A stretch of 64,000 nt of DNA from Candidatus Magasanikiibacteriota bacterium (GTDB lineage Bacteria; Patescibacteriota; Patescibacteriia; Magasanikbacterales; GWA2-37-8), in assembly GCA_016182085.1 (NCBI GenBank), contig JACOYB010000006.1:2015-66014 (forward strand). Reading direction: 5' to 3'. The translations under genes and the position numbers were made by a program. Positions 562 to 62,494 of this stretch are shown here, in pieces (positions within the stretch are counted from its first letter, which is position 1; each line of letters begins with the position of its first letter). The notes under the pieces are model-generated. The model saw only the letters and a program-made list of their open reading frames with translations. It was not told the origin of the DNA and did not search any database.

Positions 562-649
562 TTATTATAATTATACAGAGAAAAAACGCGCTTGTTTTGT
601 TAATACTAACCAAGCAAGCGCGATTTCTCTGGGTTAAAGGCCGTTAATT

Positions 650-786
650 GTCATTCTGATCAGAGCGAAGAATCCCTCTTCACTGTCATTCCCGCCCGAG
701 AGCGGGAATCCAGTCGACAATTGTCTGGATTCCCAATCAAGTTGGGAATGACAGACAAAAATCCTTCGTTACACTGAGGATGACAA
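650..786. repeat. Palindromic repeat cluster, GTCATTCCC..GGGAATCCAG family (copy R1, intergenic)
   Basis: Units gtcattcccgcccgagagcgggaatccag and ctggattcccaatcaagttgggaatgacag plus flanking degenerate units. Same family at 30908, 32971, 35011, 50144, 53502. Confidence 0.8.
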
Positions 787-814
787 AATAAATTGTCTTA
801 AAAGCGGTATTGAT

Positions 815-1339
815 ATGTCACTGAAAAAAATATTTTTACTTGTAGCGGTAATCGGAGTAGTGTTGCCGGTTTTTGTGTTTGCCGATGAGTTTGGTTTGCA
901 GGATGCTGCGCCCCCTGGATTAATCGGTAGCGGCTCCAATGTAAATTCCAGTCAAGCGCTCCCTGAGCTTATTGGTACGATTGTTGGCACAGTGCTTTCA
1001 TTTGTTGGGGCCATATTTTTCCTCCTTATTTTATATGCCGGTCTTTTATGGATGATCGCTTTTGGCAACAGTGAACGAGTAGATAGAGCTAAAAGCATTG
1101 TGGAACATGCGGCCATAGGTCTTATTATTGTGCTTGCGGCTTACGCAATATCCAGGTTTGTCTTTGGTGCCTTAACAAGTACCGACAATAATGCCCCGGC
1201 ACCGACGGCGGCTACAGTAAATTGTCCGTTTATTACGGAGGCAGTTGAATGTAATAATCAATACGATAATGAAACCAGCGTTCCTTTATGTAGATGGGTA
1301 GGGACAGTACAAAATGGTAATTGTGAAAGGAATATTTAA
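815..1339 (+). CDS. T4SS pilin-like protein, paralog 2 (Cys-containing C-terminal tail)
   Basis: Signal peptide, LWMIAFGNSERVDRAKS motif, second TM helix, C-terminal tail with 4 Cys. Confidence 0.7.
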   Translation: MSLKKIFLLVAVIGVVLPVFVFADEFGLQDAAPPGLIGSGSNVNSSQALPELIGTIVGTVLSFVGAIFFLLILYAGLLWMIAFGNSERVDRAKSIVEHAAIGLIIVLAAYAISRFVFGALTSTDNNAPAPTAATVNCPFITEAVECNNQYDNETSVPLCRWVGTVQNGNCERNI

Positions 1340-2757: not shown

Positions 2758-3846
2758 TCAATTTTTAAAAACATGTTCCAAAATAATCTTACTCGGATCA
2801 GGGTAAGATTTTTTGTGTATCATATCGGGTTTAGAAAGTACGAGTTCTATCTTACTCGCCAAATCATCGCTTGAGTGTGCCTGCATGCCATACTGGTTTT
2901 TTTCCAAATATGCCGTATTATAATCTTCTTGTCCGGGAATCGGATTGATAATAATAATTGGCTTTTGCAAAAATAACGCTTCAGAAATGGTGAGTCCGCC
3001 GGCCTTGCTTATAATCACATCGGCAATTCTCATAAGTTCATCTATATTTTCAACATTTTTGAGTAGGATAAAGTTATGCCGCCCACTCGGCCTTAACTCG
3101 CTTAATTTATTAAATGTTTTTTCATTATTTTTTCCGGAAATCGCGATAATATTGAGAGGCCGGTTAAAATTATGGCTAAAAATATGTCGTACCGCCTGCT
3201 CCGGCTTTATATTTCCGCCAGAAACCGGCATTAGTAATATAATAGGCCAATTATTATGAATATTAAATTTGGTTCTTAACTCTTGAGTATTTTTTTCTTC
3301 AAAGAAGCTGGGGTGAATGGGAATGCCGCTAGCCACAGAGTTGATACCGATTTTTGCTAAATCATTTTTTACTTCTTCCGTGGGTACGAATAAGTTTTTA
3401 TTTTTTGGGGAGAGCCAAATTTTATGAGCATAGTAATCGGTTACTACCGCAGCAATAGGAGTGGTATTTTTTTTAGGCAAAATAAATTGAGGTAAGTAGT
3501 GAGTGGAAATTATAAGGTCTGCCTGGTAATCATGTATCTGTTTTATAAATTTTCTGCTTCCTATAGCTATAATTGGGGCCAGGATTTTGAATAGTTTTTG
3601 CACAAACCAATGATCCGTTACATGATAGACAATTTTATAAGATAAGGGGATCAATTTAGAAAAAAAACTATAAAAAGACACTACATATATGTAGGCGATG
3701 CTGTCCAAATGGTTGGCCATATCAAGATGGACTATTTGGGTATCCGGGTAAAGTTTTTCGCAGGTAAGCCGAAGCGCTTCAGCGGCCCGAAAATGCCCGG
3801 ATCCGGTGGAGCACGATACAATAAGTATCTTTTTACCTTCTGGCAT
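2758..3846 (-). CDS. GT28-family glycosyltransferase (MGDG synthase / UgtP-like diacylglycerol glycosyltransferase)
   Basis: N-terminal ILIVSCSTGSGHFRAAEAL and C-terminal GT28 Rossmann half (ISKAGGLTISEAL). Confidence 0.65.
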   Translation of the reverse strand: MPEGKKILIVSCSTGSGHFRAAEALRLTCEKLYPDTQIVHLDMANHLDSIAYIYVVSFYSFFSKLIPLSYKIVYHVTDHWFVQKLFKILAPIIAIGSRKFIKQIHDYQADLIISTHYLPQFILPKKNTTPIAAVVTDYYAHKIWLSPKNKNLFVPTEEVKNDLAKIGINSVASGIPIHPSFFEEKNTQELRTKFNIHNNWPIILLMPVSGGNIKPEQAVRHIFSHNFNRPLNIIAISGKNNEKTFNKLSELRPSGRHNFILLKNVENIDELMRIADVIISKAGGLTISEALFLQKPIIIINPIPGQEDYNTAYLEKNQYGMQAHSSDDLASKIELVLSKPDMIHKKSYPDPSKIILEHVFKN

Positions 3847-3862
3847 ACCTTAACTTTTAATT

Positions 3863-3938
3863 TGGGGTGGCCTACGGGAGTTGAACCCGTGTTGCGAGAT
3901 CCACAATCTCACGTAATAACCGTTATACCAAGGCCACC
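3863..3938 (-). tRNA. tRNA-His(GTG), CCA encoded, with G-1
   Basis: Manual cloverleaf: 8-bp acceptor G-1:C73, anticodon loop TTGTGGA, T-arm ACGGG/TTCAACT/CCCGT. Confidence 0.85.
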
Positions 3939-3953
3939 ATCTATTTCCCTTGT

Positions 3954-3989
3954 GTTCCCAGTAGGAATCGAACCTACACATCCAGCTTA
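3954..3989 (-). pseudogene. Displaced 3' half of a tRNA-Arg(TCT)-like gene (anticodon-stem 3' strand through acceptor, acceptor TGGGAAC)
   Basis: Identical to the intact tRNA-Arg 3' half from GCTGG onward except the acceptor. Pairs with the 5' fragment at 4103-4140 (GTTCCCA). Confidence 0.6.
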
Positions 3990-4102
3990 CCCGCCCGCCT
4001 GACTCGTCTAGTGACCCCAGTAGGAATCGAACCTACACATCCAGCTTAGAAGGCTAGTGTCCTATCCATTAAACGATGGAGTCAACAGGCGAGTCGGGCG
4101 GG
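3990..4102 (-). other. Inverted-repeat-bounded cassette carrying the intact tRNA-Arg(TCT), inserted in the anticodon loop of an older tRNA-Arg copy
   Basis: Minus-strand read: CCCGCCCGACTCGCCT ... tRNA ... AGACGAGTCAGGCGGGCGGG, imperfect 13-17 bp IRs. Confidence 0.55.
4012..4083 (-). tRNA. tRNA-Arg(TCT)
   Basis: Manual fold: acceptor GACTCCA/TGGGGTC, anticodon stem CTAGC/GCTGG, loop CTTCTAA, T-arm GTAGG/TTCGATT/CCTAC. No CCA encoded. Confidence 0.8.
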
Positions 4103-4140
4103 GAAGGCCCCTATTATATATTAGATTAAACGATGGGAAC
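4103..4140 (-). pseudogene. 5' fragment of interrupted tRNA-Arg(TCT)-like gene (copy B, degenerate D-arm)
   Basis: GTTCCCATCGTTTAAT...GGGGCCTTC ends at anticodon-loop position 35 where the cassette begins. Confidence 0.55.
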
Positions 4141-4204
4141 AGTTTAAATAGTATTAATTTATGTGCAGAGCTTATGCGCTCCAGACGCACCCGCCTTGGG
4201 CGGG

Positions 4205-4239
4205 GAAGGCTGGTGTTTTATCCACTGAACTATGAGGAC
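4205..4239 (-). pseudogene. 5' half of a third tRNA-Arg(TCT)-like gene (copy A), ending in the anticodon loop
   Basis: GTCCTCATAGTTCAGTGGATAAAACACCAGCCTTC then CCCGCCCAAGGCGGG hairpin. No matching 3' half nearby. Confidence 0.5.
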
Positions 4240-4311
4240 GAAAAAAGCAAAACTATTCTACCTTATTTTTACAGATAAATCAAGGTATGGTACAATTATC
4301 ACTATAATACA

Positions 4312-4671
4312 GTGATTATAGTTATGGTTAGAAAATTTTTTTTGGTTTTTATATTTTTCTTCGCGCTTTTTAGCATGGCAGCTCCGGTTGCGGCTCAATT
4401 TGGATTGCAAGCAACGGCGAACAAGGCCCAATACGGAGAAACTAATATTTATTCTGTAATCAGCACGGTAATTAGCATGGTACTCTCATTTACCGGTATA
4501 GTTTTTTTGGCCGTTATGTTTTATGCCGGACTCCGCTGGATGACTGCTCGTGGGAATGAAGAATTCGCTACTAAAGCCAAAGATGCCATGTTTGCCGCGG
4601 TTATCGGTTTTATCCTGGTAGTAGCTGCCTATGGAATTTCTACCTTTGTCTTTAACAATCTTCTAAAATAG
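4312..4671 (+). CDS. T4SS pilin-like protein, paralog 6
   Basis: LRWMTARGNEEFATKA motif, two hydrophobic segments. Start may be M5 at 4324. Confidence 0.7.
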   Translation: MIIVMVRKFFLVFIFFFALFSMAAPVAAQFGLQATANKAQYGETNIYSVISTVISMVLSFTGIVFLAVMFYAGLRWMTARGNEEFATKAKDAMFAAVIGFILVVAAYGISTFVFNNLLK

Positions 4672-5923: not shown

Positions 5924-8140
5924 ATGTCAGTAAAAAATTGGTCCATGGAATGGGGGGGAAGAACTCTCTCTGTGGAAACAGGTAAGTTGGCTTTACAGGC
6001 CAATGCTTCTTGTATGGTAAGTTATGGCGACACAGTCTTTTTGGCTACTGCCACCATGAGCAAAAACACTCGCGACGGTATAGATTTTCTTCCACTCATG
6101 GTGAACTTTGAAGAAAAGTTATATGCCGCCGGTAAAATCAAAGGCAGCCGCTTTATCAAGCGCGAAGGCCGACCAAGCGACGATGCTATTTTATCCGGCC
6201 GGCTAGTAGACAGAGCTATTCGTCCTCTTTTCAATGATAGTTTACGCAACGATATACAGGTAATTCTAACTGCTCTATCTTTTGACGGAGAAGTTGACTC
6301 GCAAATTCCGGCAATGGTAGCTGCGTCAATCGCGCTATCTATTTCTTCTATTCCTTGGAAAGGTCCTATCGGCGGCGTGCGCGTAGGATCTGTAGACGGA
6401 AAGTGGAAAATAAACCCAACCATTACCGAAAGACAAACTAGCAATGTAGATATTGTGGTAGCCGGCACTCCGGAAAAAGTAATTATGGTAGAAGCGGCTT
6501 GTAAAGAAACTCCGGAAAACGATGTAATAGAAGCGATGCAGTTTGGCGCCAAAGAGATGGCCCCGCTTTTGGATTTTATAAACAAAATTCAAGCCGAAGC
6601 AGGCCAGCCAAAAATGGCGGCTGCCGAAACCGAAAGCGAAGCAGAAATCGCTTTGCAAAAAGCGGAAAAAGAAGCCGACGAGTTGGTGGCTAGCCATGTG
6701 CAAGATTGGATTTTTGATTCAGCTAAGGTAGACAGAAAAGAACGAGTAGCGCTGATCAATAAATTTAGCGATGCCATAAAACAAATGCTGGTAGAAAAAG
6801 AAACCGACGAAACCGTCATGAAAATTGTTTTGGGCCGCGTAAAAATTTATGTAGAAAAATATATTACCGAACAAATCCTGAAAAATAACCAGCGTTTGGA
6901 TGGCCGCAGTATTACCGATGTGCGCGCGCTTAGCGCCGAAGTTGGGTTGCTTCCCCGCACTCACGGTACAGGTATGTTTATGCGCGGCGACACCCAAGTA
7001 TTATCTGTAGTTACTCTTGGCGCTCCCGGCGATGTACAAACTGTAGATACTATGGAAGAAGACGGCACCAAACGCTATATGCATCACTATAGCGACACCC
7101 CAGCCACCTATGGCGAAACCGGCCCACTTCGCGGACCAGGCAACCGAGCTATTGGTCATGGAGCGCTAGCCGAAAGAGCTTTGGAATCTATGCTTCCTGC
7201 CGAAACTGATTTCCCTTACGCAATGAGAGTAGTATCCGAAGTTCTTGGTTCAAACGGCTCTAGTTCCATGGCTTCTGTTTGCGGTTCTACCTTGGCTCTT
7301 ATGGATGCCGGCGTACCGATCAAGAAACCGGTAGCCGGTATTGCGATGGGTCTGGCTAGTGACAAAAGTGGTAACTGGAAAGTTATTACCGACCTACAAG
7401 ATGTAGAAGACGGTCCGGGCGGCATGGATTTCAAGATCGCCGGCACCGCCGATGGAGTAACTGCAATCCAGATGGATACCAAAACCGAAGGTTTAAATTG
7501 GGAAATTGTAAAACAAACATTCTCTCAATCCAAAGAAGCCAGGGTTAAAATTTTGGGCTTCATGAGCAATATTATTTCCGCGCCTCGCGCAGACTTATCC
7601 AAATACGCGCCTCGCATTGTAACAATAAATATCAATCCGGATAAAATCCGTGATGTGATCGGCCCGGGCGGTAAGATGATCAACAAAATCATCGCCGAAA
7701 CCGGCGTATCTATTGATATAGAAGATGACGGACGTGTGTTTGTTACTTCTTCCGATGCAGTTGGCATGGAAAAAGCCGTGCAATGGGTCAAAGAATTAAC
7801 CCATGAAGTAACTGCCGGAGAAATTTATGAAGGCACAGTCGTGCGCATAGAAGATTTTGGCGCGTTTGTACAGGTGCTCCCGGGTCAAGATGGACTCGTA
7901 CATGTTAGTGAAATAGCATGGACACGCACCAATAGTCCCGGAGATGTGTTGAATCTGGGTGATAAGGTAAAAGTGGTTGTAAAGGAAATAGACAGCATGG
8001 GCCGCATTAATTTAAGCATGAAGCAATTATCGCCAAAACCGGAAGGCTATGTAGATCAGCCAAGATTTGAAAGACCGCCGCGCAGTGGAGGTGGACATGG
8101 TGGAAGCAGAGGCGGACATGGCGGCGGCAGAGGAAGATAA
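5924..8140 (+). CDS. pnp: Polyribonucleotide nucleotidyltransferase (PNPase) with Gly/Arg-rich C-terminal tail
   Basis: Two RNase PH domains, KH and S1 domains by motif. Start set at MSVKNW (the ORF-track start at 5807 is an upstream extension). Confidence 0.9.
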   Translation: MSVKNWSMEWGGRTLSVETGKLALQANASCMVSYGDTVFLATATMSKNTRDGIDFLPLMVNFEEKLYAAGKIKGSRFIKREGRPSDDAILSGRLVDRAIRPLFNDSLRNDIQVILTALSFDGEVDSQIPAMVAASIALSISSIPWKGPIGGVRVGSVDGKWKINPTITERQTSNVDIVVAGTPEKVIMVEAACKETPENDVIEAMQFGAKEMAPLLDFINKIQAEAGQPKMAAAETESEAEIALQKAEKEADELVASHVQDWIFDSAKVDRKERVALINKFSDAIKQMLVEKETDETVMKIVLGRVKIYVEKYITEQILKNNQRLDGRSITDVRALSAEVGLLPRTHGTGMFMRGDTQVLSVVTLGAPGDVQTVDTMEEDGTKRYMHHYSDTPATYGETGPLRGPGNRAIGHGALAERALESMLPAETDFPYAMRVVSEVLGSNGSSSMASVCGSTLALMDAGVPIKKPVAGIAMGLASDKSGNWKVITDLQDVEDGPGGMDFKIAGTADGVTAIQMDTKTEGLNWEIVKQTFSQSKEARVKILGFMSNIISAPRADLSKYAPRIVTININPDKIRDVIGPGGKMINKIIAETGVSIDIEDDGRVFVTSSDAVGMEKAVQWVKELTHEVTAGEIYEGTVVRIEDFGAFVQVLPGQDGLVHVSEIAWTRTNSPGDVLNLGDKVKVVVKEIDSMGRINLSMKQLSPKPEGYVDQPRFERPPRSGGGHGGSRGGHGGGRGR

Positions 8141-34969: not shown

Positions 34970-35010
34970 GGTGAGGAGTAGAGAGTAAGTGGTAAGGAGT
35001 AGTGTTTGTT

Positions 35011-35217
35011 TGTCATCCCGCCTGCCCGCCCTGTCGTTGGCGGGAGTGAGGCCTTAGCCGACGAGGGATCTAGGGTTGTCATTCCCGCCACAGCGGGAAT
35101 CCAGTATCCAATCAAATCGACTGGATCCCCGCTGTGGCGAGGATGACAACTGTGCAGACAGAGATTCCCTACCTACCGCAGGTAGGCTCACCCCTGCGAA
35201 GGGATTCGGAATGACAG
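35011..35217. repeat. Composite four-module palindromic repeat R4 (intergenic dprA-pth)
   Basis: Four modules: gtcatcccgc..gagggatctag, gtcattcccgccacagcgggaatccag, ctggatccccgctgtggcgaggatgacaa, cagacagagattccc..gggattcggaatgacag. Same architecture as R6. Confidence 0.8.
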
Positions 35218-62242: not shown

Positions 62243-62314
62243 AACTTAATTATTTAATAATATCCTCGATTTAACCAAGGTTGAAATCGGGGGAGTTAAA
62301 ATTTTTATTTAATG

Positions 62315-62494
62315 TGGACGAGGAGGGGCTTGGCTTCGACTAAAATTTTCTTCCGAAAATTTTGTCTAGCCACCCGTCCGAACGGATTCATCCGGGCGGG
62401 CCGCCTCACGGCCGCGCTCGCCCGCCTGCGTCGCGCGACATCGTTCCGGCGTTCTCGTCCCTCGCCGCAACACAAACTATTGTGTTGCTCTTAG
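62315..62494 (-). other. Conserved GC-rich tRNA-Leu-associated element (copy 2) ending in a direct repeat of the tRNA-Leu(CAG) 3' end
   Basis: Reverse complement ~85% identical to 8331-8514. Terminal cccctcctcgtcca repeats the tRNA 3' end. Confidence 0.75.

Follow-up and report, generated by a model that had tools for sequence, protein, structure and literature searches.

Mobile DNA that enters an essential single-copy gene normally either splices out, as introns and inteins do, or rebuilds the end of the gene, as integrating islands do. In bacterial tRNA genes, group I introns are known from the anticodon loop, including position 35/36 in Patescibacteria, and are characterised by a U before the 5′ splice site, a G as the last intron base and a length of ~200 nt or more (PMC13011429). 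The T4 endonuclease SegB, of the GIY-YIG type, recognises a tRNA-gene motif and drives the inheritance of neighbouring tRNA genes (PMC2330249), and the archaeal cases cited in PMC10714607 include Nanoarchaeum split tRNAs, Caldivirga tri-split tRNAs and the transposition of introns in Thermoproteales. Here we analyse a tRNA-Arg(UCU) locus (tRNA-Arg(TCT) in gene notation) in a 64-kb stretch of DNA from a Candidatus Magasanikiibacteriota bacterium (contig JACOYB010000006.1, positions 2,015 to 66,014; hereafter the window), in which a complete tRNA-Arg(UCU) gene bounded by inverted repeats lies inside the anticodon loop of a second, broken copy. The locus is best explained as a stack of dead remnants from successive replacements of the tRNA-Arg(UCU) gene.

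All window coordinates below refer to the minus strand unless otherwise stated. Positions 4239–3953 hold the 5′ half of one tRNA-Arg (copy A), a hairpin insert and a split second tRNA-Arg (copy B) enclosing an intact tRNA-Arg(UCU). Reading of the minus strand, ARAGORN, Rfam and a repeat finder together reproduce, base for base, the nested arrangement described in the original prediction, which was made from the sequence alone; copy A starts at 4239, the 4240 given there being one base too far. Two tRNAs, both on the minus strand, are called by ARAGORN and Rfam across the locus and its right-hand neighbour, namely tRNA-Arg(UCU) at 4083–4012 and tRNA-His(GUG) at 3863–3938 (3937 by ARAGORN and Rfam), the latter with an encoded G-1 and CCA. 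Copy A comprises tRNA positions 1–35 (35 nt, 4205–4239, GTCCTCATAGTTCAGTGGATAAAACACCAGCCTTC) and its last base is C35. It is followed by a 30-nt insert (4175–4204) of two hairpins, CCCGCCCAAGGCGGG, which is a cargo-less version of the cassette repeat, and TGCGTCTGGAGCGCA, and then by TAAGCT (4169–4174). These six bases, equivalent to tRNA positions 36–41, were overlooked in the original prediction and are the sole remainder of a 3′ half on the side of copy A; downstream of them (4174–4169) all tRNA character is lost. An AT-rich spacer of 28 nt (4141–4168) leads to the 5′ half of copy B (4103–4140), which keeps the acceptor strand GTTCCCA and ends in ...GGCCTTC, its D arm and the 5′ strand of its anticodon stem having decayed and been replaced by AT-rich sequence.

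Copy B is broken exactly where copy A is, after C35, and CCCGCCC marks both breaks, as had been predicted. The break in copy B is filled by a cassette of 113 bp without coding capacity, made up of a left inverted repeat (19 nt, 4084–4102, CCCGCCCGACTCGCCTGTT), the intact inner tRNA-Arg(UCU) (4012–4083) and a right inverted repeat (22 nt, 3990–4011, CTAGACGAGTCAGGCGGGCGGG). Beyond it lies the 3′ half of copy B, positions 36–73 of the outer tRNA (3953–3989, TAAGCTGG...TGGGAACA), and a 14-nt spacer (3939–3952) separates this from tRNA-His. The proposed match between the two ends of copy B holds, in that the terminal TGGGAAC of the 3′ half pairs 7/7 with GTTCCCA and the repeat finder scores the two acceptor strands as 8/8 complementary. 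The repeat finder also returns the cassette arms as 26 nt at 81% complementarity, and the 3′ halves of the inner tRNA and copy B as a 41-nt direct repeat at 93% identity. When folded, the cassette forms a clamp that prolongs the acceptor stem of a normal cloverleaf, with an RNA z-score of -4.3 (0/200 shuffles as good) and a DNA z-score of -2.7. Upstream of copy A, a consensus scan finds a promoter-like site (4255–4283; TTGATT, 17-nt spacer, TAGAAT) that would drive the whole tRNA-Arg/tRNA-His transcript.

Comparison with relatives bears on the origin of the layers. We denote by L-numbers the comparison loci fetched from other genomes and metagenomes: a scan of one genome per species for the tRNA 3′ half gave 63 loci, nearly all from Patescibacteria, and further loci were fetched through homologues of the neighbouring glycosyltransferase. 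The gene order of the window (pilin gene, promoter-like motif, tRNA-Arg(UCU), tRNA-His, glycosyltransferase) recurs in 7 of the 63 and in loci fetched through the glycosyltransferase, with the upstream motif CTTGATT(A/T)ATCTGTAAAAATA kept in eight syntenic loci, and the nearest relatives are metagenome-assembled genomes (MAGs) labelled Candidatus Magasanikbacteria. In the closest of them (L211), whose neighbouring protein is 94% identical to that of the window, there is a single intact tRNA-Arg(UCU), and its first 35 bases match copy A at 34 of 35 positions, so copy A is not a chance match. The upstream flank together with copy A agrees with L211 at 122 of 126 positions, and tRNA-His and the sequence beyond are identical. 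Between these flanks the alignment places a foreign block of 263 nt (3942–4204) where L211 has 129 nt, the left breakpoint falling exactly after C35 and the right one 2–3 nt before tRNA-His. The ancestral order was promoter, one tRNA-Arg(UCU), spacer and tRNA-His, and in this lineage the foreign block replaced the whole stretch that begins at position 36 of copy A and stops just short of tRNA-His.

As copy A is intact in L211 between near-identical flanks, it is the lineage's own former tRNA-Arg(UCU), recently destroyed. This differs from the order of events first proposed, in which copy A was old debris; it is instead the resident tRNA, the one struck most recently. The original idea of site-specific insertion survives in part, since the relatives show insertions in DNA at one shared site, but the latest event was not a simple insertion, a 263-nt block having taken the place of 129 nt. 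Copy A retains recipient-specific bases up to position 31, and the left junction must therefore lie within the last 7 nt of the 5′ half, which rules out ordinary homologous exchange inside that half and is a better fit to a site-specific break.

The older layers have counterparts as well. Empty-site variants, which the original prediction proposed to look for, exist for copy A in L211 and for copy B in L041, L054, L002 and L215, where the B-type tRNA (GTTCCCA...TGGGAACA) is intact and represents the empty site of the window nest; the 3′ half of copy B is the same as that of these intact B tRNAs. Occupied and empty alleles of one site are thus both found among the relatives, as in homing elements. 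The inner type of tRNA (GACTCCA...TGGGGTCA) is the sole resident tRNA-Arg(UCU), without arms, in L003 and L047. In L041 and L213, homologous hairpins at the same junction are followed by TAAGCT, a short AT-rich spacer (26 and 29 nt, respectively, where the window has 28 nt) and a new tRNA, and this unit stands behind a dead 5′ half different from that of the window. The incoming 263-nt block probably already held the B nest.

That the insert brings a complete replacement tRNA, as first suggested, is borne out by ARAGORN, which calls the inner gene (4083–4012) as tRNA-Arg(tct), and by Rfam, which scores it at 61.6 bits for RF00005 against a gathering score of 29. Its anticodon is UCU, the arginine identity elements A20, C35 and U36 are present, and the D loop is AAUGGAUA, with an A after G18 G19. 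We removed the inserts in silico and scored the joined outer copies and the inner copies with ARAGORN: the joined 5′ and 3′ halves of copy B in the window give no tRNA gene, outer tRNAs in other loci are still called in 7/8 cases, and inner tRNAs in 8/8. The view of the locus as an intron-like arrangement accordingly holds at the level of DNA and fails at that of the product, the outer tRNA of the window being no tRNA once its insert is taken out. Among the outer copies elsewhere, that of L067 has its anticodon mutated to UUU together with an acceptor mismatch, those of L014, L065 and L066 have one acceptor mismatch each, the T loop is broken in L060, the D arm of L069 holds an 86-nt insert, and L006 is clean. 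Between the inner tRNAs of L066 and L069, the anticodon and T stems show compensatory pair changes, which is how working tRNAs change, and every interrupted copy among the loci examined adjoins an intact one. On account of the outer defects, the inner calls, the compensatory changes and the constant presence of an intact neighbour, we infer that the outer halves are decaying remnants and that the inner tRNA is the only functional tRNA-Arg(UCU) gene at the locus.

The cassette belongs to a family and recurs in at least eight other loci of Patescibacteria, covering tRNA-Arg(UCU), tRNA-Arg(CCU) and one D loop. Three nests are present among the 63 unselected loci (L014 and L060 at 35/36, and L006 in the D loop at 21/22), and about ten further loci have partial copies or hairpin-bearing fragments adjoining an intact tRNA. 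A metagenome scan with the right-junction pattern added five loci (L065–L069), 5/5 of them nests at 35/36. Two of these, L066 and L068, are the identical nest in two independent assemblies, and L065 contains a second nest at 620–850 (-), in which a tRNA-Arg(CCU) broken at 37/38 encloses another tRNA-Arg(CCU) between arms of the window type. The arms of L069 are almost identical to those of the window on both sides, around a different inner tRNA. Conserved ends, as in miniature inverted-repeat transposable elements (MITEs) and palindromic elements, are evident from the arm tips 5′ CCCGCCYGMC...GGCGGGCRGG 3′, common to nine nests and several cargo-less copies. The inner arm helix covaries, GACTCG/CGAGTC being replaced by GACTTG/CAAGTC in L065, and this compensatory pair indicates that pairing of the arms is maintained. 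The eight strongest leader-trailer pairings among the 158 tRNAs of the fetched loci all belong to nested Arg tRNAs. Cargo-less relatives of the cassette include arms of the same helix-bulge-helix build in the D loop of L041, where a 6-nt loop stands in place of the tRNA, and palindromes within the T loops of dead copies in L019 and L058. Within the window the arms occur at this locus only, the other CCCGCC hairpins there being different elements.

No target-site duplication is present at any nest junction, in the window or in the relatives. One target sequence for all hairpin insertions was sought and rejected: anticodon and some T-loop insertions follow TTC, double hairpins follow TAG, and the D-loop site at 21/22 fits neither. 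An IS91-type GTTC target was likewise considered and dropped. Neither the clamp nor the double hairpins match a known RNA family in Rfam at permissive thresholds, scans of viral contigs for the arm and junction patterns matched GC-rich phages by chance only, and BLAST of the locus returned ordinary tRNA-Arg genes alone from phage records and no match from plasmids.

Homing-type endonucleases crowd this locus in the relatives. In L002, a gene for an 87-residue GIY-YIG protein (Pfam E = 3e-14) sits where a dead 5′ half breaks off, exactly at its C35 junction, and has its stop codon inside the fresh B tRNA that follows; between tRNA-Arg and tRNA-His there is a LAGLIDADG gene in L003 and an HNH gene in L216 and L016, and a DUF559 gene lies upstream in L060. 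The same order of a dead 5′ half ending in TTC, a GIY-YIG homologue and a fresh tRNA is found in tRNA-Glu(UUC) and tRNA-Glu(CUC), and in the nests of L067 and L065 a GIY-YIG gene is directly upstream of the outer tRNA. These small GIY-YIG proteins (L219:1199-1468, L220:1501-1761, L002:7097-7360(-), L067:3-203 and L065:852-1166(-)) have ~80–110 residues and are encoded immediately upstream of a tRNA, with the stop codon in its first ~22 nt, at four tRNA species; they look like a distinct family of tRNA-linked nucleases in Patescibacteria. An endonuclease gene in or beside the element, as in homing systems, is present in these relatives only. A Xer-like gene is found just upstream of tRNA-Arg(UCU) in 16 fetched loci. 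The one in L060 (4121–6433, +) encodes a tyrosine recombinase of 770 residues and carries an apparent intein-like insert, from ...TLRHC|LHKN... to ...ISHN|SFATDLL.

That tRNA genes were replaced by way of such cassettes is, leaving aside what drives the process, highly probable in our judgement. For the engine we favour homing, and think it rather probable that the cassette is a mobile element that behaves like an intron at the level of DNA, does not splice, and supplies a spare tRNA. A site-specific break would be made after TTC in the anticodon loop and repaired by copying the occupied allele, for which the tRNA halves or tRNA-His would serve as arms of homology; at the locus described here tRNA-His would provide the right-hand homology for the replacement. 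The cassette would stay in place, the insertion being survivable through its spare tRNA of the same isoacceptor, and as the outer copy decayed the host would come to depend on the cassette tRNA. The nuclease would act in trans, the small homing-type endonucleases at the locus in relatives being the candidates. In the transcript, the repeats would prolong the acceptor stem and so keep the homologous outer halves from disturbing the folding of the inner pre-tRNA, and RNase P and RNase Z would then release the mature inner tRNA.

What moves the cassette is the weakest link of this model, and several observations weigh against homing as the answer. A survey of open reading frames (ORFs) in the 64-kb window found housekeeping and pilin-like genes only, with no autonomous element and no nuclease, transposase or integrase seen. 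Characterised homing enzymes have a DNA-binding domain that is missing from the 87-residue GIY-YIG proteins, and the inner tRNA, with its identical anticodon arm, should likewise be cut by a nuclease specific for the anticodon loop. Since homing needs no inverted repeats, the conservation of their tips and the covariation of their stem hint at an enzyme that recognises hairpins, or at a role in RNA. Flipped arms, as in L006, and hairpins without cargo in D and T loops fit a structure-targeting transposition better than pure homing. The 5′ half of copy B is also far more decayed than its 3′ half.

The main rival for the engine is therefore a single-strand transposition that recognises hairpins, in which a miniature palindromic element, moved by an HUH-type (IS200/IS605-like) or other structure-specific enzyme, would insert into the loops of a tRNA gene as single-stranded DNA, and only those insertions that bring a matching tRNA would survive. 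The outcome, a dead outer and a live inner tRNA, would be as in homing, and the engine alone would differ. Such a mechanism would account for the restriction of insertions to D, anticodon and T loops, for junctions without duplicated target, for the imperfect bulged hairpin shared by the window, L069 and the cargo-less copy in L041, and for the reversal of the L006 arms relative to their cargo; the double hairpin of the D arm, a second family whose ends are TCCCGA...TCGGGA and which always follows TAG (L002, L219, L220 and L069), speaks in the same direction. We nevertheless regard it as unlikely, if deserving of serious attention, since no transposase is present in the window or adjoining any nest, the arms in the window are confined to one locus (its other CCCGCC hairpins being of different kinds), the insertion sites have no tetranucleotide in common, and the ends of IS200/IS605 elements are two separate hairpins and not one long hairpin running from end to end. 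The junctions bear more heavily on scars of a tyrosine recombinase (integrase or Xer type), by which tRNA segments arrived on small integrative elements and the nest remained after later deletions. In favour of this, work attributed to Williams in 2002 is said to name anticodon and T loops as classical crossover sites of integrases, the 16 loci mentioned above have their Xer-like gene immediately before tRNA-Arg(TCT), and in the window two tRNA-Leu genes are followed by a ~160-nt element, after which the 3′ end of the tRNA recurs. Recombinases of either the tyrosine or the serine type would duplicate an overlap, yet CCTTC|CCCGCC and GGCGGG|TAAGC have none; this absence of an attL/attR repeat largely refutes the reading. 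No more than 22 nt separates the two copies of the 3′ half, the insert is only 113 nt with no recombinase ORF seen in the window, and the Xer-like gene is present with or without a nest. The suggestion that the locus is debris of an anticodon-loop-specific integrase therefore falls, with neither overlap nor integrase gene to support it, and we consider it improbable.

A different question is whether the outer tRNA is a real split gene whose inserts are removed from RNA by an archaeal-like endonuclease-ligase pathway, so that both tRNAs mature; Patescibacteria would then possess protein-dependent splicing, or trans-joining, of tRNAs at D, anticodon and T loops, a prospect to which we assign very little likelihood, for the reading as a whole and for this consequence alike. 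It draws on the 7/8 outer tRNAs of other loci that are still called after removal of the insert, on the outer tRNAs of L069, L065 and L060, which have two or three precise loop insertions in otherwise clean exons, and on insertion positions that mirror the sites of archaeal non-canonical introns. The pairing of GC-rich sequences likewise recalls the split tRNAs of Nanoarchaeum, which are joined by such pairing. Were this so, the well-preserved outer tRNAs (those of L006, L066 and L069 at least) would mature too, and the tRNA-in-tRNA would be a compact two-for-one gene. An archaeal-type spliced tRNA is unlikely, however, given that outer copy B gives no call, the L067 outer anticodon now reads UUU, 4/8 outer copies have acceptor-stem mismatches, copy A lacks a 3′ half altogether, and interrupted copies invariably adjoin an intact one. 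Folding predicts for the junction a plain helix interrupted by an internal loop (4x3 or 4x7), with no bulge-helix-bulge motif, and pairing of the window junction drawn by hand gives at best a relaxed single bulge. To our knowledge no splicing endonuclease is known in Patescibacteria, and none is evident among the ORFs of the 64-kb window. Least credible of all is that no mobile element was involved and that local duplication, replication slippage or an assembly error at a repetitive tRNA locus produced the nest: 33 bases are identical between the inner and outer 3′ halves and the contigs of several relatives end inside the locus, but the acceptor stems differ between the inner and outer tRNAs, which match the resident tRNAs of different relatives, the nests have precise junctions in common, and the arms are conserved across unrelated assemblies, including L066 and L068.

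A group I intron was also considered and rejected. Positions 3700–4400 have no RF00028 match even at E <= 10, the base before the insert is C35 and not U, and 113 nt (30 nt in copy A) is too short, although the last base is G. The same library does find a group I intron elsewhere in the window (Rfam 69.9 bits, 12119–12317, +), within the 23S rRNA gene at 9485–12690. This gene forms a 23S-5S pair, and the 16S gene is not beside it. Such a bacterial 23S gene, the rows of pilin-like genes and the Magasanikbacteria relatives all mark the window as chromosomal DNA of Patescibacteria (candidate phyla radiation).

Several further features were seen at or near these loci. The double hairpin in the D arm or loop (TCCCGATTTT...AAAATCGAGGATCC...TCGGGA; L002:7380-7450(-), L219:1090-1160, L220:1400-1480 and 1870-1950, L069:720-810) consists of two similar hairpins in direct order, its hosts being dead Arg and Glu tRNA copies; it always follows TAG, is usually accompanied by a small GIY-YIG gene and has no Rfam match. 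The outer D loop of the tRNA-Arg(CCU) nest in L065 holds the double hairpin that is also present in the outer tRNA-Arg(UCU) 1.9 kb off. In the window, the ~160-nt non-coding element exists in two copies, ~90% identical (8333–8494, +, and 62333–62493, -), which start right after tRNA-Leu(UAG) and tRNA-Leu(CAG), and each is followed by a repeat of the last ~19 nt of its host tRNA (8495–8511 and 62314–62332); these are a second family of tRNA-associated mini-elements, the duplication being target-derived. The intergenic GC-rich palindromic repeats at 660–760 and 35010–35115 (+), GTCATTCCCGC...GCGGGAATCCAG and GGGAATGAC, are a hairpin family distinct from the tRNA cassette arms. In L048, a tRNA-Arg(UCU) at 386–459 lies between a 21-bp AT-rich inverted repeat, without outer halves, and a tRNA-Arg(CCU) at 7560–7700 is preceded by a dead 5′ half with the whole anticodon loop. 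Six tandem or nearby genes for small secreted membrane proteins of the T4SS_pilin type occupy 178–2748 and 4312–4671 (+) of the window, with Pfam PF18895 recorded on their orthologues in L211. Contigs of the related MAGs L212, L214, L215 and L218 end inside or just upstream of tRNA-Arg(UCU), and L027, in an assembly shared with L212, has a chimeric tRNA (5′ GTCTCCA, 3′ TGGGGTC) at its contig end; the repeats at this locus probably break or mis-join short-read assemblies.

If cassettes of this kind do replace tRNA genes, they represent a third solution beside splicing out and rebuilding the gene end, in which a tiny non-coding element splits the gene and brings a complete spare. The host comes to depend on the invader, and the halves of the old gene stay behind as a fossil record. 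The locus offers a readable history of tRNA-gene turnover in ultra-small bacteria, with allele changes concentrated in the acceptor stem, and a DNA-level model for the origin of split and multiply interrupted tRNA genes with GC-rich clamps, long argued for archaeal tRNAs. The very small GIY-YIG proteins encoded upstream of fresh tRNA copies are candidate tRNA-gene-specific nucleases. Annotators should note that fragments of tRNA genes, and breaks in the assembly, reflect real biology at such loci. In the searchable literature we found neither nested tRNAs nor repeat-clamped tRNA cassettes described for bacteria. The principle, mobile DNA in a tRNA gene restoring the function it destroys, is known; the form is new, in that a complete spare tRNA is carried, its vehicle is a cassette without coding sequence that is bounded by repeats and lies in the anticodon loop of the same isoacceptor, and the arrangement recurs across the phylum.

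As with T4 SegB, whose gene lies among tRNA genes and whose own region, tRNA genes included, replaces the homologous region of a relative, GIY-YIG, LAGLIDADG and HNH genes lie at the locus in the relatives of the window and the tRNA-Arg allele changes with them. In contrast to the SegB case, an endonuclease gene is absent from the window, the split runs through the anticodon loop of the resident tRNA, whose halves are left behind, and the incoming tRNA is bounded by conserved inverted repeats that homing of the SegB type neither needs nor makes. With the group I introns found in other tRNA genes the cassette shares the phylum, the loop, the 35/36 position, precise insertion without target duplication, and occupied and empty alleles, but it has no ribozyme core, is preceded by C, measures 113 nt with its tRNA, and rescues its host by a spare gene. 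Genomic islands and prophages integrated at tRNA genes resemble it in the targeted gene, the displaced fragment that remains and the function restored by the element; they restore the tRNA gene with their own partial copy, whereas the cassette is a non-coding 113 bp with a complete tRNA, both halves of the old gene flank the insert, and the window has neither an integrase nor an attL/attR overlap.

The archaeal split and multi-intron tRNAs are similar in having halves joined via GC-rich complementarity, short inserts in D, anticodon and T loops, and related inserts in different tRNAs. The host here is a bacterium, there is no bulge-helix-bulge, the outer halves decay around a complete inner tRNA, and what remains would be debris at the level of DNA. 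REP/PATE and Rickettsia palindromic elements are likewise short, GC-rich, imperfect and non-coding palindromes that occur in families and inside genes, RNA genes included. Those elements have many dispersed copies and no functional gene as cargo, whereas the cassette arms are found almost only in tRNA genes, where they enclose a tRNA of the same isoacceptor.

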